DNA of 32,000 nt from Synechocystis sp. PCC 6803 substr. PCC-P (lineage in GTDB: Bacteria; Cyanobacteriota; Cyanobacteriia; Cyanobacteriales; Microcystaceae), in the NCBI RefSeq assembly GCF_000284455.1, contig NC_017039.1, positions 1,950,001-1,982,000 on the forward strand. Reading direction: 5' to 3'. Below, in pieces: positions 4,718 through 24,083 of the stretch. Position numbers and translations under genes: made by a program. Numbering within the stretch: the first letter of the stretch is position 1; each line of letters opens with the position of its first letter. Under the pieces are notes generated by a model. That model searched no databases. It was not told the DNA's origin and saw only the letters and a program-made list of their open reading frames with translations.

Positions 4718-5209
4718 ATGATGTTTCCTCTACTGGCCCTTGAGATTCCTGAACCGATTAAAATTTATAGCCAATTTGGCCACCCCATTATGATGTGGGC
4801 GTTGTTCTTCACTTCGGTGTACGCCATGTGGCTGGGCTTCCAGTCCCGACAAATTCGCTCCGCAGAACCGGAAAAACGGAAGGAGTTGCTCCAAAAAGAT
4901 GTTAAGGGTAAACACTTTATCCTCGGCTCTCTCCTACTTTCCCTAATGGTGTTGGGGACCATTGGCGGCATGGCGGTTACCTATATCAACAATGGCAAGC
5001 TGTTTGTCGGTCCCCACTTACTCGTTGGTCTCGCCATGATTGGTTTAATCGCTACGGCGGCGGCGTTGGTGCCCTGGATGCAAAAGGGTAATGAAACAGC
5101 CCGCTTAACCCACATCACCCTAAATATCACATTGATTGGTTTATTTGGTTGGCAAGCTTTCACTGGGGTGGAAATTGTCCAAAGAATTATCAGCAAATTG
5201 GGCTCCTAG
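4718..5209 (+). CDS. DUF4079-family integral membrane protein
   Basis: 163-aa ORF with about four hydrophobic helices. The HPIMMWALFF motif near the N-terminus is typical of this cyanobacterial family. Confidence 0.7.
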   Translation: MMFPLLALEIPEPIKIYSQFGHPIMMWALFFTSVYAMWLGFQSRQIRSAEPEKRKELLQKDVKGKHFILGSLLLSLMVLGTIGGMAVTYINNGKLFVGPHLLVGLAMIGLIATAAALVPWMQKGNETARLTHITLNITLIGLFGWQAFTGVEIVQRIISKLGS

Positions 5210-5221
5210 GTTGTTACTGTT

Positions 5222-6514
5222 TTGCAAACTTTGCCCGTATTAACCAATCCCGTTGACGTTTTAATCCTGTCCAATGGCCCAGGGGAAGTGACCACCTGGG
5301 TTCGTCCTGTTGTGCAGGCTTTGCGTCAACTTTTGGGCTACAGCCACCTGAGGATTTCGGTGATGCTTTCCCCCTGTCCCCATGCCATGGGTAGGGAAGC
5401 GGAGGTGGTGCGTAGCTATCCAGAAGTGGACCGGGTGCAGAGTAGTGAACATTTTTGGAATTTCTTGCTCTGGGGGAAAACGGCCGAGTCATGGTCCTGG
5501 CATTCCCAAGGGGTGGTGCTTTTTTTGGGGGGAGATCAGTTTTTTGCCCTGGCGATCGCCAAACGGTTGGGCTATCGTTCCGTGGTCTATGCCGAGTGGG
5601 ATGCCCGCTGGCCCCGGTGGATTGATGCCTTTGGGGTGATGAATGAACAAGTACGCCAAGCTTTACCCGAAATTTATCGATCAAAAGCCACCGTCGTGGG
5701 GGATTTGATGGTGGATGTTGATGCCGCCGACGCTCCGGTAGGTCCATCGGCAAAACCTTTAATCGGTCTCCTGCCCGGTTCTAAGGCAACTAAACTGACC
5801 CAGGGAGTGCCCCTGGAAGTGGCGATCGCCGTGGAGTTACAGAAAACCCATCCCCAATGCCGATTTGTGCTTTTTTTGGCGCCCACTGTAGATTTGGAGC
5901 AATTGCAGAGCTACGGACAGGTCAAAACCAACCCCTTGGTTAGTTCCATGGGCAATATTGAAATAGAAGTAATGGAAAAAGAGGGGCAAGAATCCTATTT
6001 GTTGGCAGCAACGGGATTAAGAATTGATATTTGTCGCCAATTTCCCGCCCTGACGGAGTTGAAAAAATTGACCTTCGCCCTAACCACTGTGGGGGCCAAC
6101 ACCGCTCAACTGGGAGCTTTGGGCATCCCCATGGTGATTTTATTGCCTACCCAACACACGGAAGCGCTGAAGCATTTGGACGGTTTACCAGGATTAATTG
6201 CTCGCATTCCCTGGGTGGGACAACAATCCACCCGCCTGATTAATTACCTCATTGCCAAGAAAAAACGTCTCTTTGCTTGGCCCAATCTCTGGGCTGGTCG
6301 GGAAATTGTGCCGGAATTGATGGGGGATCTAACGCCAATGGGGGTGGCTAGTCAATTAACGCCCTGGTTAGACCATCCTGAACAGTTAACCCAGATACGT
6401 CAACAATTACAACAGGTGCGGGGCCAATCCGGGGCGGCGATCGCCATGGCCGAGTTGGTGGCAGAACAAATTGCGGTCCAGCAAACACCAGTTAGGATGA
6501 GTTTGACAAAATAG
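5222..6514 (+). CDS. Lipid-A-disaccharide synthase-related (LpxB-like, GT19-like) protein
   Basis: 430-aa ORF. The N-terminal ILSNGPGEVTTW and C-terminal TTVGANTAQLGALGIPMVILLP resemble the cyanobacterial LpxB-related family. The start codon (TTG at 5222) is uncertain. Confidence 0.7.
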   Translation: MQTLPVLTNPVDVLILSNGPGEVTTWVRPVVQALRQLLGYSHLRISVMLSPCPHAMGREAEVVRSYPEVDRVQSSEHFWNFLLWGKTAESWSWHSQGVVLFLGGDQFFALAIAKRLGYRSVVYAEWDARWPRWIDAFGVMNEQVRQALPEIYRSKATVVGDLMVDVDAADAPVGPSAKPLIGLLPGSKATKLTQGVPLEVAIAVELQKTHPQCRFVLFLAPTVDLEQLQSYGQVKTNPLVSSMGNIEIEVMEKEGQESYLLAATGLRIDICRQFPALTELKKLTFALTTVGANTAQLGALGIPMVILLPTQHTEALKHLDGLPGLIARIPWVGQQSTRLINYLIAKKKRLFAWPNLWAGREIVPELMGDLTPMGVASQLTPWLDHPEQLTQIRQQLQQVRGQSGAAIAMAELVAEQIAVQQTPVRMSLTK

Positions 6515-6650
6515 CTAGCAACTTAGAAAATAGAAGATCGCTTGTCAACTATCCCGCTCGGATCAGGTTACGACAACCATTACCCAAAAATGCCAGAGCT
6601 TAATATTTTTCTGTTGTTTCCCTAGGATCTGTTTGTAATGCCCCCCTAGC

Positions 6651-10652: not shown

Positions 10653-11096
10653 ATGGACAACATTAAAATCGATCAGCTGTATGAAAAAGACTATAGCCAA
10701 TGGGCAGAAACCATGGCCGATTTGCTCCAATCGGGTAAATTTACGGAACTTGATATTGAAAATTTGGTGGAAGAGGTACGGGATTTGTCGAAGCGAGAAA
10801 GGGATCGCCTTCTGAGTAGTCTGCGGTTGATTGTCCATCATTTGCTGAAGTGGGATTATCAGCCAAAACGGCGCTCTCGCAGTTGGCAAGGAACAATAGA
10901 GTAAGAAAGAGCAAATATCGATCTCTACTTGAAAGATAGTCCTAGCCTAAAACGCTATTTGATTAATGAATCCCTATCAAAAATTTATCCTGCCGCCCGG
11001 GCCGATGGATTTAAGGAAACGGGTTTGGCTCTGCCTGATACCTGTCCCTATGGCATTGATGAAGTGTTGCATCGTGTGGTTTCCCTGGGTGATTAA
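10653..11096 (+). pseudogene. DUF29-family gene interrupted by an in-frame TAA at 10902-10904
   Basis: The N-terminal part reads YEKDYSQWAETMADLLQSGKFTELDIENLVEEVRDLSKRERDRL..KWDYQP. Reading through the TAA in the same frame continues with typical DUF29 C-terminal sequence (DSPSLKRYL...YPAARADGFKETGLALPDTCPY) to the stop at 11094-11096. Confidence 0.7.
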
Positions 11097-11197
11097 TCAT
11101 CAATTGTGTCGGTCCGGGGTAACGGTTTGTTACGGGTGTTAAGGGTTGGGAGTTTGTTGAGTAAGCTAATGAATGTCGGTTCTCAATTGGGATTCCT

Positions 11198-11336
11198 ATG
11201 TCGGACGTGATGATCCGGGGGTCAAATTTAGGCAAAAAGTACATGATTGGCCACCAAGCAGAAGGACGGTCTAATTATGTGGCGCTGCGAGATGTACTGA
11301 CAGATGGAGCCAGGTCCCTGGTAAAGCGGTTTACGG
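11198..11336 (+). pseudogene. 5' fragment of an ABC transporter ATP-binding gene (TagH/Wzt-like N-terminus only)
   Basis: MSDVMIRGSNLGKKYMIGHQAEGRSNYVALRDVL is the stereotyped N-terminus of polysaccharide-export ABC ATPases. The Walker A that should follow is missing. The frame instead runs into unrelated sequence. Confidence 0.6.
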
Positions 11337-11573
11337 TTGATAAAAATCGATCGCCTGCTTGGGGTCTATTCCAGTCCCGACAGAGATCCCCGTATGCACT
11401 CCGTCACCATTTCCCTGGTGGTTAAAGCGCAAGGTGATTTGCTCATTGGCGATCGCCAGGAAGTATCCGAGGTCAAAGCTTTTGCGGTGAAAGATTTACC
11501 GTTGGGAGCATTAAGTCACGACCACGATCAACAACTACAGGATTTTTTGCAGGGGGAAACAATCACTGCCTGA
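11337..11573 (+). pseudogene. 3' fragment of a NUDIX hydrolase gene
   Basis: IDRLLGVYSSPDRDPRMHSVTISLVV...LPLGALSHDHDQQLQDFL resembles the C-terminal half of NUDIX (ADP-ribose pyrophosphatase-like) proteins. The NUDIX box itself is absent. The fragment abuts the ABC 5' fragment. Confidence 0.55.
11449..11456. repeat. HIP1 octamer GCGATCGC, the last copy before island 1
   Basis: Read directly. The next perfect copy is at 15598-15605. Confidence 0.9.
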
Positions 11574-11732
11574 TTCCCAGTACTTCATCTTGGGTAAACA
11601 TTCCGTATAAATCAGCTAAGTTTTCAATCAGATCTTCAATTTTTTTTCAAGAAGTATGGGTGATTTTCATAATGCAGTTCGTTTGATGTAATTCAAATGT
11701 TTTTCAATAGTTTTGCAAAAGTTGTCTTCTAT

Positions 11733-14513
11733 TTAAAAGATATCTGCCCCTAGTGCTTTTCGTTTCAAGACTAATACACGAGGTCTGGCTCCTTTCTCTA
11801 GAGTAAACCCAAGACCTGACCGATATATCTCCGGCATGTAGTAACGTGCAATGTCATCTTTACCTCTATCTTCATAAATCACACCTATATCTTCCAGCAT
11901 TCTAATGGTTGCTTGGTTGATAGATAACGCATCCAAAGTAAAAGGTGCACGTTTCTGCTCTGGTGTGTATTCTGTTTCTACAATGTCAACCCATTTTTTA
12001 AATTCGGGATACTCTTCTTTGACTTCGCTAACTTTATCTTTGCTGCAAGGCTCTATTGCTCGTCTAATTGCTTGAGGCGGCAGAAGACGGCTTTCAGACC
12101 AACGCTCAAATTGAACTTCTCCACTTCTATCGATAGTGATATGTGCAGCATGATAGAGGAGTCGAACAATGTCCCTCGCTTGTAAGCGCCCCTTGAAATC
12201 TGACAATGCTGCATAAATCCAATTCGCGGTATGCGCCTCTTTTCCAGTATCTTTTCCCAATTTTTTTCCCCATAAATTTTCTAAACTGGTAACCAGTTCT
12301 TCTCGACTCAAACTATCCAAGACTTCTTCGTTGGCACCAATCACAGAAGCTTGACTACAAACCCAATAAGCCAATCTTAAAAATGAGTCTGCATCCCAAG
12401 ATAAGTCGTAAGGACTATAAAGGCTTTCAAATTGTGCGAGGTTTTGTGTAACTGAGTATCTTAAAAAATCACGTCTCAGAAGAATGATTAAGCCAAAGTT
12501 AGCCTGTCTAATTTCATTTAGTCTCTTGGGCAAATTAATTAACGTTCTTAACGCAATTTGTTGCCCTGAATCTACTACAGCCTCTGCAAAAATATCCTCT
12601 AATCCATCAAACAAAAAAATAAGGCGAACATTTTTTTGCTTTAAATAATCGTTTAAGATTAGCAAACTTGAAGAATCATTATTCTGTAATAAACCAACCG
12701 ACTTAGATATTTGCTGAATCCAAAATCTTGTCCACTCTGGTTCACTGCTAGACTTTTCAAGAAAACTTTTGATGCTGTCCTGAAAATCTGAGTGATAAAA
12801 TTCAAGCATAGAATCAGACAAAGCTTTCTGAGTTGACGCCCTGGCCTCTCTGACAATATTTTCTGCCGCATCCCTCAATGTACTTGACTGAAGTAGGGGA
12901 AAGATGTGAGTCCTTGGTTCGATTTCAGCTAAGTCTCTTGTTGCACGCCTTAGAAATGTTTCCCAGTATTTTAATCTAGAAAGTTGAACATATATAAACG
13001 TTTTTCCAGCTCCCTTAGCTCCAATCGAAACTACACGAGGTAATTCATTACGAAAAGTCGTTGCTAAATTTTTCAAAGATTCAGTGACTAATAAACTTTC
13101 TCCTTCACCACTTTCTGCAAATTCATACTGTTTACACACCTTTCTAAAATTACGAACTGATTCTAGAGAATTGTCAATTGTGAGATCTGCACTTGAAATC
13201 TGAGGGTCTTCTGTTAATTGAGATGCAGCCCATTCCCTTGCAATTCTCATCACTGAAGTTGAAGCTAATTTATTTTTTGCTTCCTCCCAAGAATTAACAT
13301 AAAGTAACTCTTGAGTAAAGTCTGTTTCCTTAATTTCTAATCTTGCAGAATATAAATTTTCATCATCGGACTGATCACCAGGATTATAAGCAGAGTTGAA
13401 TTTTTCTAAAGAATTCTCAAAGGCAGAAAGCTTTTTTAATTCAGGAGTTAGAAAACTAATAATTATTGATGGATCATAAAATTTTCCACTACTAATCTCT
13501 TCTTCAGAGGGAGCAATATGACTAATTTGCTCTAAAACGAGGCTCATACCAGCAGTAGATTGTTCTGTAGCTGTCGTTACAAAGAAACGCTGAATTCTGG
13601 GGTCAAAAATGATAGGACTCGAAATTTCGCTTAAGCCTGCCCGCAAATCTATTAGAACATAATCTGCGGATAATGCTATTCCTAACTGATGAAGAGCATT
13701 TCCACAAGACCATTCACCTTCAGGACTTCGAGCCAAATGCTCGGGTAAGACTGGAGTATCTAAAAGTTGTTCATTACTCAAGCAAGCTGGCAAAAAATAA
13801 AAGGTTGATCCCTCTTCATATCTAGGAGTTTTCTTAATCTCTTCTGCTAATAGCACAATAGTTTCTTGACGATCAATAGGAGTGTAGTGATAAGCTTCCA
13901 AAAAGTCAATAAAGGAAATTGCAGGTCGTTGTTTTTCTGATTTATCCCAATAGGTTAATCCTGGGGCTTCTAAATCCGCATCTACTACTAAAACAGTGAT
14001 TCTTTTATTGTGTTCTTTAGATGCTTCTAAAAGAGCAAATAAGAAAGAGGCCAAATGTAACGTCCTACCAACACCTCCTTTGAAAGAATAAAATGCAATG
14101 ATCTTTGGCGATGATAAAGCAGTTTCTGGAAAATGAAATTTCGAAGTTAATTTAACTAAATCAATATTACTATCTGAATCACTGCTTATATATGCAATTT
14201 CCTGCCAGAAAGGACGAATAAAACCTGAAATATCAAATTGTGAAGGTTCATTTTCATAAAACTCAATAGGCAAAGCTGCATCGCCAAGATCTAAGCGAAT
14301 AAGATTCTGATCTAGCTGATACCAGTCTTGAAACCACTTAGTTAAAATTCCTTGAGCAGCCTCTATACAGTTCAAATTTGGAATCCCAATTTCTAGTGCA
14401 TCAGAAAAGCATGAAATCGAATTAATACAATCTGGCAGTTTTTCTCCATTGAAAGTAATTTTACGAATAAATCTTTTAACATCTAGCCAAGTCAAATATT
14501 TCAAAGATCTCAT
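11733..14513 (-). CDS. Large dual P-loop protein. It has an N-terminal domain of unknown function, a ParA/MinD-like ATPase with a KGGVGR variant Walker A, a NACHT/STAND-like NTPase and a C-terminal helical region. No known function.
   Basis: 926 aa from ATG 14513, or 939 aa from the upstream GTG at 14552. Numbering on the 939-aa ORF: KGGVGRT at 158-164 (nt 14061-14081), VLVVDADLEAP at 187-197, YVLIDLRAGL at 298-307. The second, canonical Walker A GAKGAGKT is at 511-518 (nt 12999-13022). Its Walker B LIFLFDGLED is at 644-653 (nt 12594-12623), followed by LIILLRRD. The gene is AT-rich and HIP1-free. I recall the locus as an unknown protein (sll1563). Confidence 0.8.
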   Translation of the reverse strand: MRSLKYLTWLDVKRFIRKITFNGEKLPDCINSISCFSDALEIGIPNLNCIEAAQGILTKWFQDWYQLDQNLIRLDLGDAALPIEFYENEPSQFDISGFIRPFWQEIAYISSDSDSNIDLVKLTSKFHFPETALSSPKIIAFYSFKGGVGRTLHLASFLFALLEASKEHNKRITVLVVDADLEAPGLTYWDKSEKQRPAISFIDFLEAYHYTPIDRQETIVLLAEEIKKTPRYEEGSTFYFLPACLSNEQLLDTPVLPEHLARSPEGEWSCGNALHQLGIALSADYVLIDLRAGLSEISSPIIFDPRIQRFFVTTATEQSTAGMSLVLEQISHIAPSEEEISSGKFYDPSIIISFLTPELKKLSAFENSLEKFNSAYNPGDQSDDENLYSARLEIKETDFTQELLYVNSWEEAKNKLASTSVMRIAREWAASQLTEDPQISSADLTIDNSLESVRNFRKVCKQYEFAESGEGESLLVTESLKNLATTFRNELPRVVSIGAKGAGKTFIYVQLSRLKYWETFLRRATRDLAEIEPRTHIFPLLQSSTLRDAAENIVREARASTQKALSDSMLEFYHSDFQDSIKSFLEKSSSEPEWTRFWIQQISKSVGLLQNNDSSSLLILNDYLKQKNVRLIFLFDGLEDIFAEAVVDSGQQIALRTLINLPKRLNEIRQANFGLIILLRRDFLRYSVTQNLAQFESLYSPYDLSWDADSFLRLAYWVCSQASVIGANEEVLDSLSREELVTSLENLWGKKLGKDTGKEAHTANWIYAALSDFKGRLQARDIVRLLYHAAHITIDRSGEVQFERWSESRLLPPQAIRRAIEPCSKDKVSEVKEEYPEFKKWVDIVETEYTPEQKRAPFTLDALSINQATIRMLEDIGVIYEDRGKDDIARYYMPEIYRSGLGFTLEKGARPRVLVLKRKALGADIF

Positions 14514-14977
14514 TACGAATTTAGCTCCTGTCGAATCCACTCTGATATACACATCAACTGCTTTTCCAGTTTATCGTCTTCTATTGTCCTCAATGAAGAA
14601 CTGCTATTGACAGTATCAATCAAGCATCCGCCATATCGCCACGCCTGATTGATTTTTCCCGCATCTATCTTTCGCTCAATCTTTTTACCTTTGATTTGAA
14701 TGGGCTCCATTTGAAGAGATGCTGATAACTTTAGAGACGGTGCTGCACTTAAATAGTCTAGCAATTTATTAATATTGTGCTGTGCTTCTGTAATTTCATC
14801 ACAAAAGCTTGTGCAGGATGCAGATTGTCGTTTCATCAAAACTGCTTTGAGTCCACATTCTATTGAATAAAATAATAAAAGTCTATGGGCATTAGTGCGT
14901 GAACAATGAGTAGATGCCTGGAGATTGTTTCGCCATGCTTTCTGCATTTCTCTGTCTGTAAATGGTACGGAAGCCAT
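14513..14977 (-). CDS. Small hypothetical protein (154 aa), possibly HEPN-like. It is the first gene of the two-gene module.
   Basis: The ATG is at 14977 and the stop TAA at 14515-14513 overlaps the downstream ATG (TAATG). The helix pair AHRLLLFYSIECGLKAVLMKR ... EAQHNINKLLDYL resembles the E-x-x-L-K-A ... H-x-I-x-x-L core of HEPN-fold proteins; this is pattern recognition only. I recall the locus as an unknown protein (sll1562). Confidence 0.6.
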   Translation of the reverse strand: MASVPFTDREMQKAWRNNLQASTHCSRTNAHRLLLFYSIECGLKAVLMKRQSASCTSFCDEITEAQHNINKLLDYLSAAPSLKLSASLQMEPIQIKGKKIERKIDAGKINQAWRYGGCLIDTVNSSSSLRTIEDDKLEKQLMCISEWIRQELNS

Positions 14978-15173
14978 AATTTTAATTGATCACTTGTCTC
15001 TCGGTTAATAGAAGTCTTGTCGGATTTTTATTGAAATTACTACGATGTAGTAGTGGCGACTAAAGAGAACTTCAATCAACCAACTAACACCCTATAATAC
15101 GTAATAATTTGAAGCAGGACCCCGATGACTCAAGAACCCTGTACAATTTTGCCTTTCTTATTCATTTACTTAT

Positions 15174-18146
15174 TTACTGATCTGCCCCCTCAATTGGTGC
15201 AAATCCTTGCCGTTGAATATTCTCCGTTACATGGCGTGGTTCTAAGAACTGTAACAAATAATCTGGTCCACCCGCTTTGGAACCAACCCCAGACATTTTG
15301 AACCCCCCAAAAGGTTGGCGGGAAACGATCGCCCCGGTGATGGTGCGGTTGATGTAAAGATTGCCTACTTCAAACTCCGCCGCGGCACGATTAATGTGAT
15401 CTGGGGTACGGGAATAGAGACCCCCCGTTAAAGCGTAGTCGGTACCATTGGCAATTTCCAACGCTTCGTCAAAATTGGCCGCCCGAATAATGGTTACCAC
15501 TGGACCAAAAATTTCCTCCTGGGCAATGGTGGCATGGCGGTCAACATTTTTGAACACCGTGGGACCGACGAAATAGCCTTCACTAGGAGCATCACAGGCG
15601 ATCGCCAATTCACATTCCGCCTTACCCTGTTCGATGTATTCCTGAATGCGGGCTTGGGCCTTGGCATCAATTACCGGACCAACCTGGGTGCTGGGGTCAT
15701 CGGTGGGGCCCACATTGAGGGAACGGGTTGCCTCTACAAACCGCTCCACAAAGGCATCGTGTACGGGGGAAAGCACCACCACCCGGGAACAGGCAGAACA
15801 TTTTTGGCCCGTGTAACCAAAGGCGGAATACACTGCCCCGGCCACCGCTTGATCGAGATCCGCACTTTCATCAACGATGATGGCGTTTTTGCCGCCCATT
15901 TCTGCAATTACCCGTTTGAGGTGTTTTTGTCCTGGTTGTACCAAAGCGGCATCGGCGTAAATGCGACAGCCCACTTCCCTGGAGCCAGTGAAAGCAATCA
16001 AATGTACGTCGGGATGATTGACCATGTGGGAACCCACCACCGACCCCTTACCAGGTACATATTGGAAGACCCCAGGGGGAACCCCCGCTGCAATAAGAAT
16101 TTCCGCAATTTTAGCCGCAATTACCGTGGAAGTTTCCGCTGGTTTTAGTAACGTACAATTGCCCGTCACCAACGCCGCCACCGTCATACCAACGGCGATC
16201 GCCATGGGGAAATTCCAGGGGGAAATCACTAGGGCAATGCCCCGGGGTTGATAGAAATAACGGTTGGTTTCACCGGGAATATCGAGGTTAACGCCTTGGT
16301 CTAGCCGTTCCATTTCATCGGCATAGTAGCGACAAAAATCGATCGCCTCGGACACCTCCGCATCAGCTTGGGGAATAATTTTGCCCACTTCCAAACAAAT
16401 CCAGGCGTTTAACTCATGGCGACGCTCTTCCATAATGTCTGCCGCTTTGCGGAGAATGCCACACCGTTCCCGTACTGGAGTTTTTTTCCAAGCAGGAAAC
16501 GCAGCCTTGGCTATTTCCAGGGCATGGTCTGCCTGTTCAACACTGATTAACCCCACTTTCCCGATCGCCTGGGATGGACGACAGGGATTAACGGAATCAA
16601 TGTAGTTAGCCGTTTCCACGTACTCGCCGTTAATGTAGGGCAGATAGGTTTTGCCCAATTGTTGTTTAACCCTGGTTAGGGCTTGAAATGCTTGCTGGCG
16701 TAAATCAGCATCGGCGTAATCGGTGTCGGGAGCGTTGCCATAACCCTTGGTGGGTAGGTCATTAATGCCTTTAACTTGGGGCGGAGCAATTAATTCTTCA
16801 ATGGGCCGCTCTTCTAGGTTTTGGCGTAGAAAAGAACTGTTAGCAGTATTTTCCAATAAGCGTCGGATTAAATAAGCCATCCCCGGTAACAGCCGACCGT
16901 AGGGTGCATAGACCCGCACCCGATGACCCCGTTTAACAATGGCCCGGGCCAGGGGTTCTCCCATGCCGTAAAGAATCTGCATTTCATAACGACGTTTGGG
17001 AATATTCAACTCTTCGGCGATCGCACAGGCCAGGGCTTGGGAACGGACATTATGACTACCAATGGCGGCGTACAAATATTCGTGGTTTTCCAGTAATAGC
17101 CGAGTCATGCGCTCGTAGTTGGCATCGGTTTGGGCTTTTTCCACATAAACCGGAATTTGCCAATGATTCTGTTGGGCTTTGATGGTTTCTTGATCCCAAT
17201 AGGCTCCTTTCACCAAGCGCACAGTCACGGGATAACCCCGATGTTTAGCCCAGGGAATTAATGCTTCCAAATCTTCGGTCGAATCCCGCAGATAGGCCTG
17301 CATGGTAATGCCCACATCGGTGCGGGAGCGGAACTCTTCTTCCACTAACAATTCCTTGAGAATATTTAAAATCAGGTCTTTGTAGTGGTACTGCTCCATG
17401 TCAAAGTGAACAGCGACACCTAATTCTTGGGCTCGCCGCAACAATTCCCGAATCCGCTCACAAACCTTGGCTTTACTACCTGCGGGGTCCAGGGGATCAA
17501 ACTGGGAATAAAAAGCCGTTAACTTTACCGATACCTGCACCTGGGGCAATATTTCCCCGTCTGCCTGATCAATTTGGGGCACCTTCGACCAGGATTTGGC
17601 TTGCTGGGATAACTGGGCCATCAGGTCCAAATAATTTTGCCAATATTCCGCCGCCTCCGATTCCGTAATTACCGCTTCCCCCAGTAAATCAATGGTAAAG
17701 CCCATTTTTTCCTTGCGGAGCCGTTCCACTGTTTTGATCACCTGGGCGATCGTTTCCCCAGCAATGTATTTAAAAGCCAACTGTTCCGTCGCTTTACTCA
17801 CCGTTCCCGCTGCAATCTGGGCCGGCGTCGAGTGGGCATCGGCAAAATTCAACAATTTTTTCAGTGCTTCTGGTAATTCCACCTCCTCTTCGCTCATATA
17901 CTGCTGGAGATGGTTGGCAATCTCACTGTTACTCTGCAACGCTGGCAGACAGTCGATAAATTTGAACAATTGCACCCGCAATCCAGGATGACCCATGGTC
18001 CAATCCAGCAACTTGTCATCGAGCCGCAGATTATCGCCAATTTTGTCCCACAGCGATCTTTTCTCCCTGGTCTGGGCTAATAGTTCCTTGGCGATCGCCT
18101 GGGTGGCCTGTTCATACTGTTGTTGTGAATCGATTTGTGCAACCAT
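15174..18146 (-). CDS. putA: Bifunctional proline dehydrogenase / delta-1-pyrroline-5-carboxylate dehydrogenase
   Basis: 990 aa. The N-terminal half is proline-dehydrogenase-like (MQILYGMGEPLA, AYLIRRLLENT). The C-terminal half is an aldehyde dehydrogenase (EMGGKNAIIVD, the GQKCSACSR catalytic Cys block, EEIFGPV). Confidence 0.95.
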   Translation of the reverse strand: MVAQIDSQQQYEQATQAIAKELLAQTREKRSLWDKIGDNLRLDDKLLDWTMGHPGLRVQLFKFIDCLPALQSNSEIANHLQQYMSEEEVELPEALKKLLNFADAHSTPAQIAAGTVSKATEQLAFKYIAGETIAQVIKTVERLRKEKMGFTIDLLGEAVITESEAAEYWQNYLDLMAQLSQQAKSWSKVPQIDQADGEILPQVQVSVKLTAFYSQFDPLDPAGSKAKVCERIRELLRRAQELGVAVHFDMEQYHYKDLILNILKELLVEEEFRSRTDVGITMQAYLRDSTEDLEALIPWAKHRGYPVTVRLVKGAYWDQETIKAQQNHWQIPVYVEKAQTDANYERMTRLLLENHEYLYAAIGSHNVRSQALACAIAEELNIPKRRYEMQILYGMGEPLARAIVKRGHRVRVYAPYGRLLPGMAYLIRRLLENTANSSFLRQNLEERPIEELIAPPQVKGINDLPTKGYGNAPDTDYADADLRQQAFQALTRVKQQLGKTYLPYINGEYVETANYIDSVNPCRPSQAIGKVGLISVEQADHALEIAKAAFPAWKKTPVRERCGILRKAADIMEERRHELNAWICLEVGKIIPQADAEVSEAIDFCRYYADEMERLDQGVNLDIPGETNRYFYQPRGIALVISPWNFPMAIAVGMTVAALVTGNCTLLKPAETSTVIAAKIAEILIAAGVPPGVFQYVPGKGSVVGSHMVNHPDVHLIAFTGSREVGCRIYADAALVQPGQKHLKRVIAEMGGKNAIIVDESADLDQAVAGAVYSAFGYTGQKCSACSRVVVLSPVHDAFVERFVEATRSLNVGPTDDPSTQVGPVIDAKAQARIQEYIEQGKAECELAIACDAPSEGYFVGPTVFKNVDRHATIAQEEIFGPVVTIIRAANFDEALEIANGTDYALTGGLYSRTPDHINRAAAEFEVGNLYINRTITGAIVSRQPFGGFKMSGVGSKAGGPDYLLQFLEPRHVTENIQRQGFAPIEGADQ
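15598..15605. repeat. HIP1 octamer GCGATCGC, the first copy after island 1
   Basis: Read directly inside putA. Confidence 0.9.
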
Positions 18147-18495
18147 GGCTTATCTTCTGGGCGATCTGTTTGGTAAGGTATTCCCAACCCTTCATTGTAC
18201 ATTCAGAAAGTGATGCTCTGATTCTTCATCCTAATGAAATGGCAAAATTAGTCTCTCTCAAGAACAGCTAAATTTCCATAATGAAAATTGCCGAAAAAGT
18301 GAGCTTTTATACCTTAAATAAGAGTATGACGTGTGTAGAATGATTATAGATTTCTCAAAATGCCTGTCATAACTAATTTTCAGCCAAATCAACCGACAAT
18401 CCTTTGTTGACTAAGCTCAATTTTTGGGTGTGGCAAAAATTTTTGGATGCTACAAAAACAGTATTTGCCTCAACAAAAATTAGAAGGAAAGGATT

Positions 18496-19458
18496 ATGTC
18501 GGTTAAATTAGCGGTTCTAAGCTTACTTGCTTCCACGTTCACATTACCATTGCTGCTACCATCCTCAGTCCAGGCCCAGACATTAATCCCGGGTAAACAG
18601 TGTGTATTTAACAACGGCGCTTTCTCGGTAAACGTAGATTGGTATGACCCCGGCTCGATTGTTTTCATCGGCAAAGATGCAACAGAGGCCAAAGACTACT
18701 CAAAATATCAAGTAACTGGGAATCCCGTAGATACTAAGAAGGATGTGACACTGGGGTTTAGTTCCTGTACTGAGGGGGCAAACCGTGTGGCAGTTGTCAG
18801 AATTGTTGGCCATGACATAGCCAATTCAGCAATTACAATTGCCGCTGGAACCCTTGCCGGGGTGGCGACAGGCGTGGGTGGTGCATTCGTTTGTGCGGCT
18901 TCAGTCGGTGCAGGTTGTATTACTCTGGCAGCGGTGGCACCTGTTACAGGAGGGGCGATTGCGGCGGTGGAAAAAGCACTGCCGGAAGTCAAAGAAATTG
19001 CCTACATTGGTTCCCCTGGCACAAAAAATTACGTGGATTTATCGGGCACAATCTGGCAAGTGGGCATTGCTAATAATGTTCCCTTGAGTGATAGCCGTGG
19101 ATTTGCTAAAGTTGGGACATTTTTCACTGGTGGAACGCCTGGGCCGAGAAGTATTAGTTTTAGTAATCAAGCCGGTTATGTGGCGGAAATGCAGGTGATG
19201 TATTTTCAAAAACAGTATCTAGGTGGGGCTTTTGTTGATCTACCAGTGGTAAAAAGTTCCGGAAATATAACCCTTGGTCGGACTGTCCACATTGATGTTC
19301 CATTGGCAATTTCTAATCAGCCCATTCAAGTATTTATTAAAGGTGTTGCGACATTGAAACCCGATGTTTACTCAACGACTATTCCTGTTAATTTTTCAGG
19401 AAACAGGTGCTATAAGTCATTTGGGACTATTTTTGATGCCCAAGGTAGCACTTGCTAG
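18496..19458 (+). CDS. Secreted hypothetical protein with a central Gly/Ala-rich glycine-zipper segment
   Basis: 320 aa. A strong RBS (GAAGGAAAGGA) precedes the ATG. The Sec signal peptide is MSVKLAVLSLLASTFTLPLLLPSSVQAQ. The hydrophobic Gly/Ala segment is AITIAAGTLAGVATGVGGAFVCAASVGAGCITLAAVAPVTGGAIAAV. The C-terminal half looks beta-rich. I recognise no family. Confidence 0.75.
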   Translation: MSVKLAVLSLLASTFTLPLLLPSSVQAQTLIPGKQCVFNNGAFSVNVDWYDPGSIVFIGKDATEAKDYSKYQVTGNPVDTKKDVTLGFSSCTEGANRVAVVRIVGHDIANSAITIAAGTLAGVATGVGGAFVCAASVGAGCITLAAVAPVTGGAIAAVEKALPEVKEIAYIGSPGTKNYVDLSGTIWQVGIANNVPLSDSRGFAKVGTFFTGGTPGPRSISFSNQAGYVAEMQVMYFQKQYLGGAFVDLPVVKSSGNITLGRTVHIDVPLAISNQPIQVFIKGVATLKPDVYSTTIPVNFSGNRCYKSFGTIFDAQGSTC

Positions 19459-19481
19459 AGCCCATTTCCAAAGAAAAAATC

Positions 19482-19517
19482 AAGCCCAAATTATCTCCAC
19501 TAAAATGATTTGGGCTT
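19482..19517. terminator. 10-bp perfect hairpin AAGCCCAAAT/ATTTGGGCTT with a 16-nt loop
   Basis: It begins 24 nt after the stop of the secreted-protein gene. An A-run (AGAAAAAATC) precedes it on the + strand, so the U-tract lies on the - strand side. There is no T-run after it on the + strand. It is possibly a terminator that insulates the gene from the IS nest. Confidence 0.4.
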
Positions 19518-19900
19518 CGCAATAAGGGTGACAGATATTTTGTATCCCTCTTCCGTCAGACTGAGGGAATTAAAATGGAGATAAAAGGCTGAAAAGCGCG
19601 GAGGGAGAATGACAAAGACAAGAGAGGCGAAAAAGACAGTACAGTGTGTAGACACATATAGTGAACTGTATAAAGATATATTTCTAGAAGTGAGGTCTTA
19701 TGAGTCATTTAAATATATCATTGTGGGAATATTAAGTGATATAAAAAGAAAGAGTTTACCTGCAATAGCATCATCACTAGGATTGAAAAATGAACAGGGA
19801 CTACTGCATTTTATGACAGATTCTCCTTGGGAATTAAAAGAATTAGAAAAAAGAAGATTAAATATTATCTTAGAAGTTTTAGAAGGAAGAGAAATAATAG

Positions 19901-19909
19901 TAATAATAG
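19901..19909. repeat. Target-site duplication TAATAATAG, left copy
   Basis: Identical 9-mers directly flank the 1174-bp element. The G that precedes each copy makes the junction ambiguous by 1 nt. Confidence 0.8.
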
Positions 19910-21083
19910 CAGAATCGTTGAATGGCACTTATGTACGACCTAAAAATAGACAGAATAATCCTACAGCAAAGCAAATTCATCACCTTAGTGCTAACTCCCT
20001 TAGCCAGTGTACATAGCTTATTTTTTCACACATGAAAGCCTGTAAATAACATAGTTTGTCTAACATTGTTGTACCTGCTTCTTTTGGGATTACCAGTAAT
20101 TTTAGTATTAAATAAGCAATTATATAGGTATAGATTTGAATCCCAATTGCATTCTCATTTTTGGCAATCAGTCTATTCAGCTTTAAGTGCATTTTTAAGA
20201 ATTTCCATAACAATTCTATTTGCCATCTTTTTTTATAAATTTCTGCTATTTTTTCATCACTAACTCCTTCTATTTCTTTACTTTCTATAGGTAAATTTGT
20301 AACCAATCTAAACTCTGAATTATCATGGGTGAATATTACCACTCTACTCTCTATTTTATTCTTTTCAGTTCCAACCATATAGTTATCATTGGCTAATTTT
20401 TCTAGCTTTATATTATTCTTTATTCTTAATACATGATATTTGTTATTCTCCTTTTGTAATCTCTTGATTCTCTGTAAGTCACAAAATCCTCTATCCATTA
20501 CTGCTACTCCATTTTCTGGAGTCTCTTCTATTGTTTCATTCCCATATTTATTATCATGACCTTGTCCAAAGTGAATTACTATTCCCCCCGGAATCCCTGT
20601 TGATAAGTTAATCCCACTGAATACTTTTACCTGATGAAATCCAAGGTTCCACATCAACTTACTAGTTATGCTGACAATGGTTGAATCGAGAGGAAATATT
20701 TCTAATTCTCCCTGCTTAATTTCCTTCCTTTTCGACAATTCCTTTTTTAAGGAAAATATTATTTCTCTAAAAACTCCCACATCCCTTTTTTTGCTTGCCT
20801 TTGAGAATGTAGATATATCGACTGTCTCTCCTCGTAAGTTCAGTCTTTTAAACATACTCCTCATGCTTGTCTGGCTCTGGTCTAACACTAATCCTAACCA
20901 GATACTCACAAACTTAAATGTGTCTAATACTGGGTAGTCATCTTTAGGAAAATTAGATAGATAAGTTTTGACAATATGTCCAAAATTTGATATCATCGCT
21001 TCAATTATTCTAATATTTCTGCCCTTTATTCTATCATTTTAAAGAGCTTTTTTTCTCTTTATCACTATCGTTCAACACTTCTG
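19910..21083 (-). mobile_element. IS4-family insertion sequence, 1174 bp (ISY203-type), nested in the IS701-like element
   Basis: Terminal inverted repeats are CAGAATCGTTGAATG (left) and CAGAAGTGTTGAACG (reverse complement of the right end), matching 12/15. It is flanked by the 9-bp direct repeat TAATAATAG. Removing it precisely restores the host transposase frame. The length matches my memory of ISY203. Confidence 0.85.
19980..20996 (-). CDS. IS4-family DDE transposase of the nested IS
   Basis: An intact 338-aa ORF fills the element. MDRGFCDL and YKKRWQIELLWKFLK are typical IS4 DDE / Y-x2-R-x3-E-x6-K blocks. Confidence 0.85.
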   Translation of the reverse strand: MISNFGHIVKTYLSNFPKDDYPVLDTFKFVSIWLGLVLDQSQTSMRSMFKRLNLRGETVDISTFSKASKKRDVGVFREIIFSLKKELSKRKEIKQGELEIFPLDSTIVSITSKLMWNLGFHQVKVFSGINLSTGIPGGIVIHFGQGHDNKYGNETIEETPENGVAVMDRGFCDLQRIKRLQKENNKYHVLRIKNNIKLEKLANDNYMVGTEKNKIESRVVIFTHDNSEFRLVTNLPIESKEIEGVSDEKIAEIYKKRWQIELLWKFLKMHLKLNRLIAKNENAIGIQIYTYIIAYLILKLLVIPKEAGTTMLDKLCYLQAFMCEKISYVHWLRELALR

Positions 21084-21092
21084 TAATAATAG
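21084..21092. repeat. Target-site duplication TAATAATAG, right copy
   Basis: See the left copy at 19901-19909. Confidence 0.8.
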
Positions 21093-22107
21093 ATGAAACA
21101 GGAGACCCCAAAAAAGGGAAAACAACAGATTATGTAAAAAGACAATATATTGAAAATTTAGGAAAAATAGAAAGCGGTATAGTGTCAGTAAATGCCTATG
21201 GTTACTGCGATGGAGTAACGTTTCCTCTAGAATCAAAAGTATTTAAACCAAAAGAAAGATTAAAAGAGGGAGATAAGTATAAAACAAAGCCGGAATTAGC
21301 AGTAGAGATAATAAAAGAACTAGAAGAAAGTGGTTTTAAAATAAAAAGAGTAGTGTCAGATAGCTTATATGGAGAAAGCCATAGCAATTTTATCAGTGCT
21401 GTAGAGGAATTAAAAATAGAATATGCAGTGGGAATCCGGAGTAATCATGGGGTCTGGCTTCCAAAGGAAGCTAAAGTAAGGGCAAATAAGTGGAGGAGGT
21501 TTGAACACATAAGATGGGATAGAAAACAGGAAGATAGGTATATCAGAGAAATAGTTTATGGCAAAAAAGCGCAATAAGATATTGGGAAATTAAAACAGAA
21601 ACAGAAAAAGAGGAGGAAAAAGCAGGATGGTTTGTAATGACTCGAATACCAGATATTAAATATAAAGAAGTTGGCAGAATATATGGAGTAAGGTCATGGA
21701 TAGAATATGGATTTAAGCAATGCAAAAGTGAATTAGGATGGGCAGATTTTAGGGTAACTCATTATGAGCAAATTCAAAAATGGTGGGAATTAGTGATGTG
21801 TGCATATTGTATGATTTGTTTTTATGATGAGAATTTTAATCCGACTCTAAATTCAACGTCAAAGTATCATCAAAAGCATGAAAAATGGGATAAAGAAAAA
21901 TGGCTAAACAACCTACGATTAGTGATCTCTGTATTTAATGCAATAAATCTTATCAAAAAGTGGTTAAAAGTATTTCCATTTGCTCATGTTTTGGATGAAT
22001 TAACTAAATTTTACAACAAGGTTGATAAGCTAGATCGATTAAAGTATTTGCTAAATTCATGGAATACATTCTATTCTTCTTCTGCCTAGATTGATGAAAG
22101 AGGGATA

Positions 22108-22418
22108 TCTCCACGGCCGCCACCAAAAAGCAACTATGTACTACATCAGATGACTAGAAGCCCTATCAACCACTGCTGGATGAACATCCCGATGCGTTTC
22201 ATATAATTAGCAAAAGAGAAACAGTAGGAATTGAGAGAAACAACTCAGATAATCGCCATTGGTTTGCTAGATTTCATCGCCGCACGAAAGTTGTATCCAG
22301 GTCAGCCCACATGGTTGATATCACCATGGCAATATTTGCCAAATTCAGGGTCAATGGTAACATAGAACTACTGCAGGACTGGCACCTCTCATTACTTTCT
22401 TGGAACTCTCCTGAATAA
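22108..22418 (+). pseudogene. 3' remnant of an IS1-like transposase gene with a premature TAG
   Basis: The translation reads STAATKKQLCTTSDD*KPYQPLLDEHPDAFHIISKRETVGIERNNSDNRHWFARFHRRTKVVSRSAHMVDITMAIFAKF... The blocks ...T..IER.N...R....R..RKT...S[KR]S..M match the C-terminus of IS1-type transposases. The TAG at 22155-22157 sits where a Trp (TGG) is expected. It starts exactly at the IS701-like right end. Confidence 0.6.
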
Positions 22419-22638
22419 AAATCTAAGCCCTACGTCCAAATGCTTTCACCCTATTAGTTCTTTTGAAAACCGGCTCGGTGAACATGACTCTAGTTAATCC
22501 CACTGGCCAAATACAGTCACAAAAAAAGAGGAGATAAATCCAAGGTCAGAATTGTTCATTCCCTGGTTTACCCCCCTCTGTGACGATATTTGGAGATCGC
22601 CGTTGTTAATATTGCTGGTTTAAGACTTTGTCAGGTGA

Positions 22639-23793: not shown

Positions 23794-24083
23794 CGCGGTC
23801 AATCCTCCCCTTCGCTAAACGCAGTCAGGTAATTTTCTAGGGTTAATTTGTCGGTAATTGTTATCAATGCCGGAGTTATTGGGCATGATAGTTAGGCTTC
23901 CCATATTACCAAAACATGGCGCTGGCAAAATCTGTGCTGTGGCCCCAGCTTGATTTCCTTGACTGCCATTGGCGTGGTTTTAAGAGGACTCTGGGGCGAT
24001 CGCCTCCACCAGAATTACCTAGGTGCAAAAGCAGGACAGACCGTACAATGGGAAACGATTAATCAAATGCACGCATAACTTGA

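Follow-up and report, generated by a model that had tools for sequence, protein, structure and literature searches.

A candidate two-gene conflict cassette in Synechocystis PCC 6803 with a ParA/MinD-type ATPase fused to a STAND-class NTPase

The sll1562-sll1563 locus

The 32,000-nucleotide stretch of Synechocystis PCC 6803 DNA analysed here (the window) contains a pair of genes, sll1562 and sll1563, both on the minus strand, with putA on one side and gene debris plus cimA on the other. The debris consists of split DUF29 fragments, an ABC-ATPase N-terminal fragment and a NUDIX-like fragment. The features of the locus are:

11457..15597, unstranded: AT-rich, HIP1-free tract around the pair, from the GC and HIP1 scans
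14513..14977, minus: sll1562, ORF of 154 aa, the small partner, with a weakly HEPN-like predicted fold lacking Rx4-6H; the PDC-M28 'A' component
14511..14515, minus: TAATG stop/start overlap, read from the sequence, in which the sll1562 TAA shares one base with the sll1563 ATG
11733..14513, minus: sll1563, 926-aa fused double NTPase, stop codon at 11733-11735

The longest open reading frame for sll1563 (11733..14552, minus strand) has a GTG start and encodes 939 aa. Its homologues are 915-935 aa long and their alignment begins at an internal Met, which places the real initiation codon at ATG 14513, in agreement with the 926-aa product proposed in the first-pass annotation. The residues designated there as K517, D649 and R163, in the 939-aa numbering, are K504, D636 and R150 in the 926-aa numbering used here. 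That annotation had also described two co-directional, overlapping genes between putA and a patch of debris, and the reading frames, the overlap and the DUF29, ABC and NUDIX fragments were all located.

The GC content of 11733-14977 is 0.371, compared with 0.513 for cimA, 0.508 for putA and 0.499 for the remaining window (excluding the module, the gene debris and an IS patch). HIP1 (GCGATCGC) occurs at 31 sites in the window versus 0.2 expected by chance, and at none over the 4.1 kb from 11457 to 15597; given 1.3 sites per kb in the background, a gap this long has a Poisson probability of approximately 0.005. The foreign composition noted earlier (about 37% GC, with no HIP1 for 4.1 kb) is thus confirmed. 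No recognisable mobile-element backbone was found around the pair at its chromosomal site between putA and cimA.

Domain organisation of the two proteins

The large protein, sll1563, joins a ParA/MinD-type ATPase, with Arg in place of the P-loop Lys, to a canonical STAND/ORC-class AAA+ NTPase. Its segments and motifs are:

14109..14513, minus: N-terminal domain, aa 1-135, no family match (alignment of 36 homologues)
13524..14108, minus: KGGVGR-variant ParA/MinD-type (SIMIBI) ATPase core, aa 136-330 (NCBIfam NF047398)
14061-14081, minus: P-loop KGGVGRT, aa 145-151
13953-13982, minus: switch DADLEAPGLT, aa 178-187
13626-13649, minus: ParA-like Walker B DLRAGLSE, aa 289-296
13035..13523, minus: middle region, aa 331-493, rest of the ParA-like fold, then a variable linker (homologue alignment)
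11925..13034, minus: Sll1717-family STAND/ORC-Cdc6-class AAA+ NTPase, aa 494-863, as predicted by NCBIfam NF047389 and Foldseek
12999-13022, minus: Walker A GAKGAGKT, aa 498-505
12594-12611, minus: Walker B FDGLED, aa 635-640
12465-12476, minus: RRDF, aa 680-683
11736..11924, minus: C-terminal tail, aa 864-926, a beta-hairpin plus helices in the AF2 model

All of these motifs had been quoted at first pass, and none of them varies among 36 homologues. Representatives down to approximately 31% identity normally have the fused length. Mean column identity of sll1563 over 36 sequences is 66%, which is high for an immune gene and counts against the defence reading favoured below.

The N-terminal domain has no match in Pfam, NCBIfam or PDB-sequence searches, and the PDC-M28B profile covers it with roughly its first 125 positions. 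Its conserved residues are T8, W9, D11, R14, S37, D38, E41, W60, F61, W64 and Y65, together with E84, R100, P101, W103 and E105. The ATPase core that follows is matched by NF047398 (E 2.3e-49; 168 bits against a curated cutoff of 90), bearing out its earlier identification as a KGGVGR ParA-like module, and NCBIfam classes it as a 'variant AAA ATPase' of ParA/MinD type. The KGG signature lysine, D-x-D switch and hhhhD Walker B of the ParA/MinD deviant Walker-A ATPases occur in sll1563 in the same order and spacing. The protein differs from them in the P-loop, where the canonical Lys is replaced by Arg in 74 of 76 full-length relatives and retained in none, in having no ParB or MinE partner, and in carrying a second NTPase; Pfam ParA-type models match only below threshold (CbiA and AAA_31, with a weak VirC1 match). 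The middle region is conserved from aa 331 to 445 and then gives way to a gapped, variable linker at approximately 446-470 in the alignment of 36 homologues.

By its modelled fold the second module is a STAND/ORC-Cdc6 class AAA+ NTPase. NF047389 scores 77.6 bits against a cutoff of 75, and the AF2 model (pLDDT 85.9) has a helical lid followed by a winged-helix-like part, with Foldseek matches to ORC2/Cdc6 (E 3e-5), BrxC (5e-4), Apaf-1 (1e-3) and CED-4 (3e-3), and also to RdrA. GxKGxGKT is present in 76/76 full-length relatives, and the DGLED Walker B plus an Arg after strand 4 correspond to the DG-x-[DE][DE] and Arg arrangement of the STAND/ORC class. Although sll1563 itself does not reach the Pfam NACHT threshold, nSTAND1 is touched by five of 36 homologues and more distant relatives match NACHT or nSTAND1; the structural matches, DGLED and these relatives uphold the initial NACHT/STAND-type assignment. 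The C-terminal 200 or so residues, said at first pass to fit no family, are instead the lid and winged-helix part of this module. Paralogous architectures join the KGGVGR domain either to a true Pfam NACHT domain or to TPR repeats. The tail ends in a basic stretch (R910, R912, K917, R918 and K919) that is invariant in the 36-homologue alignment and may contact nucleic acid or a membrane.

The nucleotide-binding domain, helical lid and winged-helix fold predicted for the C-terminal half are common to the Avs/bNACHT, BrxC and RdrA class, and RdrA-RdrB likewise comprises a large ATPase with a separately encoded small partner. Unlike Avs/bNACHT-type systems, however, sll1563 lacks C-terminal TPR, WD40 or LRR sensor repeats, and it differs from STAND defence systems in having no recognised N-terminal effector and an extra ParA-type ATPase fused upstream. 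PADLOC reported no match to its Avs, bNACHT, BrxC or RdrA models at E <= 1, and no recognised effector domain was found in either protein.

The small protein, sll1562, has 487 homologues and an AF2 model with pLDDT 89.5. Its best-TM Foldseek matches are the classical HEPN proteins 1ufb (TT1696; also the top-probability match), 2hsb (AF_0298) and 4nqf, helical bundles matched with TM scores of 0.44-0.54 but E > 0.1, which is not significant. A conserved E-x-x-x-K helix, a helix-3 His and an R-Y motif are HEPN-like traits, whereas an inserted beta-hairpin (aa 88-104), the lack of a Pfam HEPN match and the absence of a conserved Rx4-6H from the family set it apart. Invariant residues include N29, R32, Y37, E40, K44, H67, R102, W113, R114 and Y115, and H31 is kept in 32 of 33 homologues. 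We therefore regard sll1562 as weakly HEPN-like by predicted fold: of the earlier HEPN-like assignment, the structural resemblance stands, while the catalytic-type motif and a significant E-value are missing. Rousset et al. independently arrived at HEPN when curating the E. coli orthologue. Because Rx4-6H is absent and there is no significant Foldseek, Pfam or PDB match, a role as an RNase effector is doubtful.

Relatives, genomic settings and prior catalogues

Co-occurrence of homologues of the two genes, proposed earlier as a check, is pronounced. In 85 of 88 independent loci (27-85% identity) the small gene immediately precedes the large one on the same strand, with a tight junction in 85/88 and a gap of usually 0-40 nt. 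On this evidence sll1562 and sll1563 form an obligate pair with translational coupling. Homologues mainly beside partition or division genes and without the partner, which the first-pass annotation named as speaking against its proposal, were not seen, and no such gene recurs among the neighbours of 80 non-redundant loci. One locus has the small gene deleted (L029), in another an IS splits the operon (L026), and a further one (L024) is a viral contig that carries the pair.

The pair is distributed among cyanobacteria, Desulfobacterota, Ralstonia, E. coli and a Klebsiella phage, and the module is more AT-rich than its flanks in 49 of 52 loci. It is present in 11 of 5,426 complete E. coli genomes and is therefore accessory rather than core. 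The AT-richness and patchy cross-phylum distribution support the earlier suggestion of horizontal acquisition, and the pair appears to be a mobile cassette. Nearest neighbours in the raw survey of 80 non-redundant loci are mostly housekeeping genes, so enrichment in defence islands is modest. Chromosomal loci in classic islands include L009, with MmeI restriction-modification, PemK, Fic and SNF2 genes, and L004 and L005, with TIR-CHAT-AAA_35, NACHT and WD40 proteins nearby; elsewhere the nearest neighbours include type I S subunits, BrxC, DpdE, a ZorD-like protein and MADS genes.

Two further settings bear on function. In a Klebsiella P2-like prophage, a pair with 36% identity lies between the portal gene gpQ and the replication gene gpA, a position at which a phage whose backbone is 97% identical has different cargo. 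In E. coli P4-like satellites, pairs with 35-41% identity lie between int and psu. Experiments have established each of these intervals as an anti-phage hotspot (PMC9122126), and their cargo, when tested, mostly proved anti-phage (PMC9122126, PMC13586616). Occupancy of both by orthologous pairs strongly suggests, by analogy, a role in defence, as the first-pass annotation had proposed.

That annotation overstated novelty in finding no named system with this architecture, as the pair is already a listed defence candidate in two catalogues. Rousset et al. (2022, Cell Host Microbe, Table S1B) list it as P4 system #43, labelled 'HEPN' and 'AAA_31' and 'Likely a RNAse', with 34 occurrences; the family is absent from their tested set and from the systems in the main text of a 2026 NAR paper. 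The orthologous E. coli #43 pair (WP_016245208 plus WP_100774474/WP_016245209) has the same gene order and overlap, with small proteins 41% identical (WP_016245208) and large proteins 35% identical (WP_100774474) over full length. Both modules are AT-rich relative to their hosts, and the large proteins share the KGGVGRT, D-x-DLEAPG, DLRAG and GAKGAGKT motifs, but #43 has LLVDGIED and RAD where sll1563 has LFDGLED and RRD, and it occupies the P4-like psu-int hotspot rather than a chromosomal site between putA and cimA.

The second catalogue entry is PDC-M28 of PADLOC-DB v2 (components A, B and C), one of the PADLOC candidate systems, which are predicted from genomic embedding in known defence loci (PMC12881386). 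A PADLOC run, also proposed at first pass, matched sll1563 to PDC-M28B (E 1.6e-14, KGGVGR half) and PDC-M28C (E 3.6e-7, second half), and more distant fused relatives match both more strongly. PDC-M28A is matched by 26 of 33 small-protein homologues but is not reached by sll1562 itself. Whereas B and C are separate profiles of 438 and 480 positions, sll1563 and nearly all relatives examined are single polypeptides, and the candidates for a truly split form lie either at the end of a contig or on both sides of a scaffold gap.

A conflict role and its alternatives

We consider it probable that sll1562 and sll1563 make up a self-contained conflict cassette of two genes, gained by horizontal transfer, and a cyanobacterial member of the PDC-M28/#43 family, most likely a candidate NTP-switched defence cassette of abortive-infection type. 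The large gene is transcribed in PCC 6803 (log2FC -1.36 under nitrogen starvation; PMC5714215). In such a system sll1563 would act as both sensor and switch, responding to a DNA or protein feature of an invader. The cue would trigger nucleotide-dependent dimerisation through the ParA-like module and higher-order assembly through the STAND-like module, and the assembled complex would then license an effector, either the HEPN-like sll1562 or the N-terminal domain of sll1563. If sll1562 is the effector it could be an RNA-targeting or nucleotide-binding toxin, and effector action would arrest growth of the infected cell.

The pair could instead be an addiction or inter-element competition module, a toxin-antitoxin-like stabiliser or a means of plasmid or satellite exclusion, in which a HEPN-like toxin is restrained by the large ATPase and the carrying element benefits rather than host defence. 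Classical HEPN proteins, the best structural matches of sll1562, are toxins of HEPN-MNT pairs. The pair rides on a P2 prophage, a P4 satellite and a viral contig, is a lone cassette amid housekeeping genes in most loci, and in some has HipAB, PemK or Fic neighbours. We nevertheless think this unlikely: no known antitoxin comes near the size of a 926-aa double NTPase, the canonical HEPN toxin motif is missing, the tested cargo of the two hotspots is mostly anti-phage, and the copies with a deleted small gene or a split operon persist, although these may be dead.

Somewhat less likely still is a non-immune role inside the cell, as a STAND/ParA switch for signalling or regulated cell death that is triggered by physiological stress, for instance nutrient status. 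Cyanobacteria, multicellular Nostocales among them, have very many and well-conserved members of the family; sll1563 is highly conserved in sequence, and the TIR-CHAT-AAA_35 and WD40 neighbours are typical of cyanobacterial signalling or conflict loci. In PCC 6803, an NtcA ChIP peak lies within sll1563, and expression of the gene falls under nitrogen starvation. A cellular switch fits poorly, however, with the foreign composition, the patchy cross-phylum spread, the accessory status in E. coli, and the occurrence of the pair in proteobacterial prophage and satellite hotspots and viral contigs. A housekeeping positioning or partition system of ParA/MinD type is very improbable, even though RefSeq and JGI use the names 'ParA family protein', 'BcsQ' and 'MinD-like ATPase', the KGGVGR domain is of ParA/MinD (SIMIBI) class and gives weak CbiA, AAA_31 and VirC1 matches, and the basic C-terminal tail may recall the surface-binding tails of MinD or ParA. 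Against it, those Pfam matches are all under gathering thresholds, no ParB, MinE, centromere or division gene is a recurrent neighbour, and the P-loop Lys is lost throughout the relatives. Moreover, the ParA-like domain is fused to a STAND-class NTPase with an obligate HEPN-like partner, and the pair, which is accessory and AT-rich, occupies defence hotspots.

The sll1562-sll1563 gene pair in Synechocystis

The genes sll1562 and sll1563 are situated between putA and cimA in the chromosome of PCC 6803, and the two overlapping genes described in the first-pass annotation were confirmed at this location:

14513..14977, minus strand: small gene (sll1562), a 154-aa ORF
11733..14552, minus strand: large ORF (sll1563), 939 aa when read from GTG

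For the large protein, more than 100 homologues have lengths of 915-935 aa and align from an internal methionine of the window protein, such that the true start is the ATG at 14513 and the product has 926 aa, the length originally proposed. The stop codon of the small gene shares one base with this ATG, in the sequence TAATG.

The foreign, AT-rich composition noted previously is clearly seen, with a GC content of 0.371 in the module as compared with 0.513 in cimA, 0.508 in putA and 0.499 over the remainder of the window. Of the 31 copies of the cyanobacterial HIP1 octamer in the window, none lies between 11457 and 15597, confirming a HIP1-free stretch of about 4.1 kb; the probability of such a gap at the background density is approximately 0.005. 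Exact matches to PutA and CimA are confined to PCC 6803 substrains and the B. subtilis BEST7613 chimera, with identical gene order and the module always present. No empty putA-cimA site was found among them and, because all of these matches represent the same strain, none was found in a relative. The only paper we found that mentions sll1563 lists it as an 'unknown protein', describes an NtcA ChIP peak inside the gene and gives a log2 fold change of -1.36 under nitrogen starvation (PMC5714215); the gene is thus expressed. A promoter and terminator scan gave no enrichment relative to shuffles.

Gene debris is present between cimA and the module (10653-11573), and may be the scar of earlier insertions at the same site:

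10653..10904 and 10929..11096: DUF29 (PF01724) gene split in two ORFs
11198..11425: N-terminal fragment of an ABC-type ATPase
11337..11573: C-terminal fragment of a NUDIX-like protein

Domain architecture of the two proteins

One polypeptide, the sll1563 product, holds two intact nucleotide sites of different classes, one of which has a fixed Lys-to-Arg substitution, and all of the motifs quoted in the first-pass annotation are present and invariant in 36 homologues. The proposed ParA/MinD-type module with KGGVGRT is borne out by the NCBIfam model NF047398 ('KGGVGR-motif variant AAA ATPase'), which matches aa 136-330 across profile positions 2-189 of 190 with 168.3 bits against a curated cutoff of 90 (E 2.3e-49). 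KGGVGRT lies at aa 145-151, with KGGVGR replacing the KGGxGK of the deviant Walker A, and the layout is that of ParA/MinD (SIMIBI) proteins, including the signature Lys, a D-x-D switch and an hhhhD Walker B. Among 76 full-length relatives (27-85% identity) the canonical P-loop Lys position is occupied by Arg in 74 and by Lys in none. Pfam CbiA, AAA_31 and ParA do not reach their gathering scores (14-16 bits against cutoffs of 25-27); the large protein has only sub-threshold Pfam matches (CbiA, AAA_31 and VirC1), and those of its homologues are below threshold too.

The N-domain (aa 1-135) is conserved among homologues and has no match in Pfam, NCBIfam or PDB sequences, in agreement with the earlier statement that the N-terminal 150 or so residues fit no family. 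Neither protein of the pair had a significant match in profile searches of PDB sequences. Two IMG/VR contigs encode KGGVGR fusions lacking the 135-aa N-domain, one with an above-threshold Pfam NACHT domain (contig L025, 7974-11294; 1107 aa) and the other with TPR repeats (contig L023, 2374-4239; 622 aa), and these architectures suggest a KGGVGR module that can be reused as the front end of STAND-type switches.

The remainder of the large protein contains a STAND/ORC-type module that ends in a winged-helix-like part, and a basic tail. The corresponding NCBIfam model, NF047389 ('P-loop ATPase, Sll1717 family'), matches aa 494-863 (profile positions 32-387 of 454), a marginal pass at 77.6 bits against a cutoff of 75 (E 1e-21). 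Both the Walker A (GAKGAGKT) and the extended Walker B (LFDGLED) are invariant in 36 homologues, and RRD is present after the strand following Walker B; in the set of 76 relatives, GxKGxGKT is found in all and a Walker B regular expression matched 54. The AlphaFold2 model of aa 437-926 is confident (pLDDT 85.9), with a helical lid preceding the winged-helix-like end, and was compared with the PDB using Foldseek; the hits listed below all have a probability of at least 0.96, with TM-scores of only about 0.3.

Foldseek hits to the second module of the large protein, with E values
Archaeal ORC2/Cdc6: 3e-5
BREX BrxC: 5e-4
Apaf-1: 1.2e-3
CED-4: 2.6e-3
RADAR RdrA: 9e-3

The predicted structure is consistent with the ORC/Cdc6-STAND clade of AAA+ NTPases, within which the fold is non-discriminating. 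The STAND assignment is favoured by matches in relatives, as Pfam nSTAND1 is touched by five of 36 homologues (E at least 0.002) and more distant relatives of the C-terminal half have precomputed PF05729 (NACHT) or PF20703 (nSTAND1) matches, and also by the KGGVGR-NACHT fusion. The NACHT/STAND module of the first-pass annotation is supported by its Walker motifs, and its predicted fold is compatible with the assignment, but the window protein itself has no Pfam NACHT or nSTAND match at gathering score. No TPR, WD40, LRR or other repeat family that might form a C-terminal sensor was matched, and the protein ends about 60 aa past the NF047389 match.

The extreme C-terminus (aa 909-926; window 11736-11790) is an invariant basic and hydrophobic stretch, ARPRVLVLKRKALG, that is modelled as a helix and is reminiscent of the tails with which MinD and ParA proteins bind membranes or DNA. 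A relative of the second module is also present in Microcystis phage Mic1 (L027, MN013189), where gene Mic1_05 (5010-5630) codes for a 207-aa product annotated as 'ParA family protein'. It is 29% identical (E 2e-18) to the nucleotide-binding core of the STAND-like module, and not the ParA-like module, of the large protein in prophage L022, and the stand-alone cyanophage domain could be a decoy or competitor.

The partner encoded by sll1562 is weakly HEPN-like and does not have the canonical catalytic motif. We identified 487 homologues of this protein. Conservation that extends to the most distant gene pairs comprises Y-x-x-E-x-x-x-K (helix 2), a helix 3 His, an Arg and an R-Y motif. In the confident model (pLDDT 89.5), four main helices are accompanied by a beta-hairpin (aa 88-104) and a long C-terminal helix. 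Foldseek searches gave nothing significant and no match in BFVD, with sensible TM-scores (0.44-0.54, E > 0.1) only to the HEPN proteins 1ufb (probability 0.90), 2hsb and 4nqf; the HEPN name is also used by some UniRef entries and in the curation of Rousset et al. No Pfam or NCBIfam HEPN family matches at E ≤ 1. In 33 small-protein sequences Rx4-6H is not conserved; 25 of them have R27-x3-H31, and R27 is variable. The earlier 'HEPN-like' designation is thus tenable as a description of the modelled fold, but does not extend to the catalytic motif or to a Pfam or NCBIfam family match. Canonical RNase chemistry is unsupported given the lack of both a conserved Rx4-6H and a Pfam HEPN match, and we consider it doubtful that the protein is an RNase.

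A weak likeness of aa 90-148 to Sac7d/Sso7d (E 0.012), in which 'kikkvWRvGK' aligns with 'inqmWRYGG' of the small protein, was rejected and is probably a chance match; the model has a hairpin rather than a full SH3 barrel, and Sac7d/Sso7d is absent from the Foldseek list. The WRYGG motif is invariant.

Pairing and genomic contexts of the module

The two genes constitute an obligate, translationally coupled pair. Loci were collected from genome, viral and metagenome contigs, exact-protein look-ups, and plasmid and E. coli collections, and homologues of both genes co-occur in 85 of the 88 that retain upstream DNA, with the small gene directly upstream of the large gene on the same strand. The spacing is usually 0-40 nt, and pairing is maintained down to 27% identity of the large protein. 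Three loci are exceptions: one (L024) has a divergent HEPN-like ORF instead, another (L029) has an intact large gene with the small gene reduced to an 11-codon remnant (6563-6640), and in the third (L079) no small-gene homologue was found. A Ralstonia pseudosolanacearum megaplasmid (NZ_CP069246; L026, 10340-14736) has an IS (DDE_Tnp_1) between the small and large genes, and this copy and that of L029 are decayed. The Ralstonia intergenic ORF was considered as a third component and rejected, as it is the IS transposase.

The neighbours of the pair differ between loci, indicating that it is a mobile cassette, and in 49 of 52 loci it is more AT-rich than its flanks (median difference -5 points); the horizontal acquisition proposed from the Synechocystis sequence is thus supported. 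Some loci are classic defence islands, such as L009, with genes for an MmeI-type R-M system, PemK, Fic, SNF2 and PD-(D/E)xK proteins, and L004 and L005, with TIR-CHAT-AAA_35 and NACHT-HEAT proteins; the nearest neighbours at 80 non-redundant loci (118 ORFs; 25 of 134 matched Pfam families listed) are mostly housekeeping genes. A minority have strong PADLOC matches, including type I S subunits, BrxC, DpdE, a ZorD-like protein, a type II MTase, HEC-06 and MADS mad3/mad8; this result, drawn from the listed families, is qualitative.

In two different Nostocales genomes, Anabaena CCY 9910 (L004, 13454-18714) and Scytonema hofmannii PCC 7110 (L005, 12850-16051), the TIR-CHAT-AAA_35 protein and a second AAA_35 protein with GUN4 or WD40 adjoin the pair, which could reflect either a recurrent association or a shared island. 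A truncated family member on a Phenylobacterium MAG contig (L108, 1681-8427) is in a conflict-type neighbourhood, with two HipA/HipB toxin-antitoxin pairs and a 961-aa LRR-Roc-COR GTPase downstream.

The pair is carried recurrently in anti-phage hotspots. L022 is a P2-like prophage containing terminase gpP, portal gpQ, P2 capsid, gpO, gpA, Dam and integrase genes, and a 36%-identity pair is located exactly between gpQ and gpA. Klebsiella phage ST16-OXA48phi5.4 has terminase and portal genes 97% identical to those of L022, and its cargo at the position of the pair is a different one, a hypothetical protein and a UvrD-like helicase. Eleven of 5,426 complete E. coli genomes also contain full-length relatives with 41% (small) and 35% (large) identity, which were found only in the 'distant' blastn mode, megablast giving no match. 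The region in E. coli 4/2-1 reads tRNA-Leu, int, small gene, large gene, IS21, psu, ogr/delta, sid, and the pair therefore occupies the interval between psu and int of a P4-like satellite. Experiments have established this interval and gpA-gpQ as hotspots of anti-phage systems, and P2 itself has old and tin at its hotspot (PMC9122126).

Earlier listings and predicted function

The E. coli pair has been listed previously in this P4 hotspot survey. Table S1A of Rousset et al. (2022) contains 'hypothetical + AAA_31' many times with exactly the accessions of the E. coli pair (WP_016245208 and WP_100774474). In the curated Table S1B, the pair is system #43 ('HEPN | AAA_31'), for which 34 occurrences are counted and the remark 'Likely a RNAse' is given (PMC9122126). 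Both proteins of system #43 are orthologous to those of the window (41%, E 8e-35; 35%, E 6e-173), with the same motifs and gene order, although that of E. coli is carried by a P4-like satellite, between psu and int, and the Synechocystis copy is chromosomal, between putA and cimA. The pair does not appear in the table of cloned and tested systems in the same study (PMC9122126), and no system in the main text of a 2026 NAR follow-up matches it (PMC13586616).

A second listing is PDC-M28 in PADLOC-DB v2, one of the PADLOC candidate systems predicted from embedding in known defence loci (PMC12881386). The two halves of the large protein match PDC-M28B (E 1.6e-14) and PDC-M28C (E 3.6e-7); the window small protein has no match to PDC-M28A at E ≤ 1, and 26 of 33 small-protein homologues do match it (best E 1.4e-4), as does the small protein of prophage L022 (E 0.004). 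PDC-M28 is modelled as three genes, A, B and C, whereas B and C are fused in the window and in nearly all relatives, and the fused form of about 900 aa is dominant among 579 representatives (50% clustering). A split form of B and C was verified at none of four candidate loci (P0255, P0461, P0472 and L109), since each lay at a contig end or was interrupted by an N-run where the genes meet. Membership of Avs, Gabija, Septu, PARIS, Lamassu or Menshen was rejected, as PDC-M28 accounts for all PADLOC matches at E ≤ 1. The module therefore matches none of these systems, in line with the first-pass annotation, but because the family has been flagged twice as a defence candidate the novelty first claimed was too high. 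Nothing relevant to KGGVGR, PDC-M28 or sll1717 came up in full-text searches of the literature, and we found no published report of experimental protection by this family against phage or plasmid.

The interpretation of the module as a candidate defence system is supported, its function being predicted, and we think it probable that the pair serves in defence or conflict and that the cassette acts as an NTP-driven switch. The decisive context is carriage of the pair by mobile elements, namely the P2-like prophage and the P4-like satellite. That the pair is instead an addiction module, or one of inter-element competition, seems improbable, and a role as a non-immune signalling or regulated cell death switch quite improbable. 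A housekeeping ParA function, which the ParA/MinD layout of the first module might bring to mind, is highly improbable. Partition ATPases of the ParA/MinD type have the canonical Walker A lysine (KGGxGK[ST]), whereas this family has Arg, and no partition or division genes recur beside the pair: ParB, centromere, MinE and division genes are absent from the called neighbours of six loci, and ParB, MinE and division genes from the listed 25 of 134 Pfam families among the 118 nearest-neighbour ORFs.

By analogy with STAND systems and RdrA-RdrB, the large protein of such a defence switch would sense an invader cue, assemble through ATP-dependent ParA-type dimerisation and AAA+ oligomerisation, and activate an effector, either the small protein or the N-domain, which would then arrest the infected cell. 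A more specific proposal, which we regard as unlikely, is that the family represents immune switches of a new class, governed by two-key NTP logic. The obligate Lys-to-Arg P-loop would make the first module a slow or non-hydrolysing nucleotide sensor, possibly surveying DNA, and this ParA/MinD-type dimeriser would gate the STAND/ORC-like oligomeriser of the same polypeptide; the HEPN-like partner would be a non-catalytic adaptor or trigger receptor, and the 135-aa N-domain a new effector.

The pair is architecturally unusual. We know of no characterised defence system that uses a SIMIBI/ParA-class ATPase in such a way, and there is none among the PADLOC matches. If it protects against phage, it would add an architecture that is experimentally unexplored in bacterial immunity, an Arg-P-loop ParA-type ATPase fused to a STAND-class NTPase together with a HEPN-like partner. 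This is unusually easy to test, since there are orthologues in the tractable PCC 6803 (sll1562/sll1563) and in E. coli P4 satellites, for which the pFR66 cloning and phage-panel assay of the Bikard and Rocha groups already exists. A defence role would also correct widespread misannotation of the large protein in RefSeq and JGI ('ParA family protein', 'BcsQ', 'MinD-like'). PCC 6803 would gain another candidate locus for defence, a point of importance to strain engineering and to work with cyanophages.

The window contains a second AT-rich, HIP1-free tract at 18098-23996 (GC 0.28-0.40, with an AT-rich core at 19500-22500). Between putA and the IS patch within it, a plus-strand ORF (18496-19458) has a 320-aa product that apparently starts with a signal peptide and for which no Pfam family is recorded. 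The tract consists of two nested IS elements:

19609..20016, 21182..21577 and 21637..22089, plus strand: DDE_5-type transposase fragments, split by the inserted IS
19980..20996, minus strand: DDE_Tnp_1 transposase of 338 aa, encoded by the inserted IS
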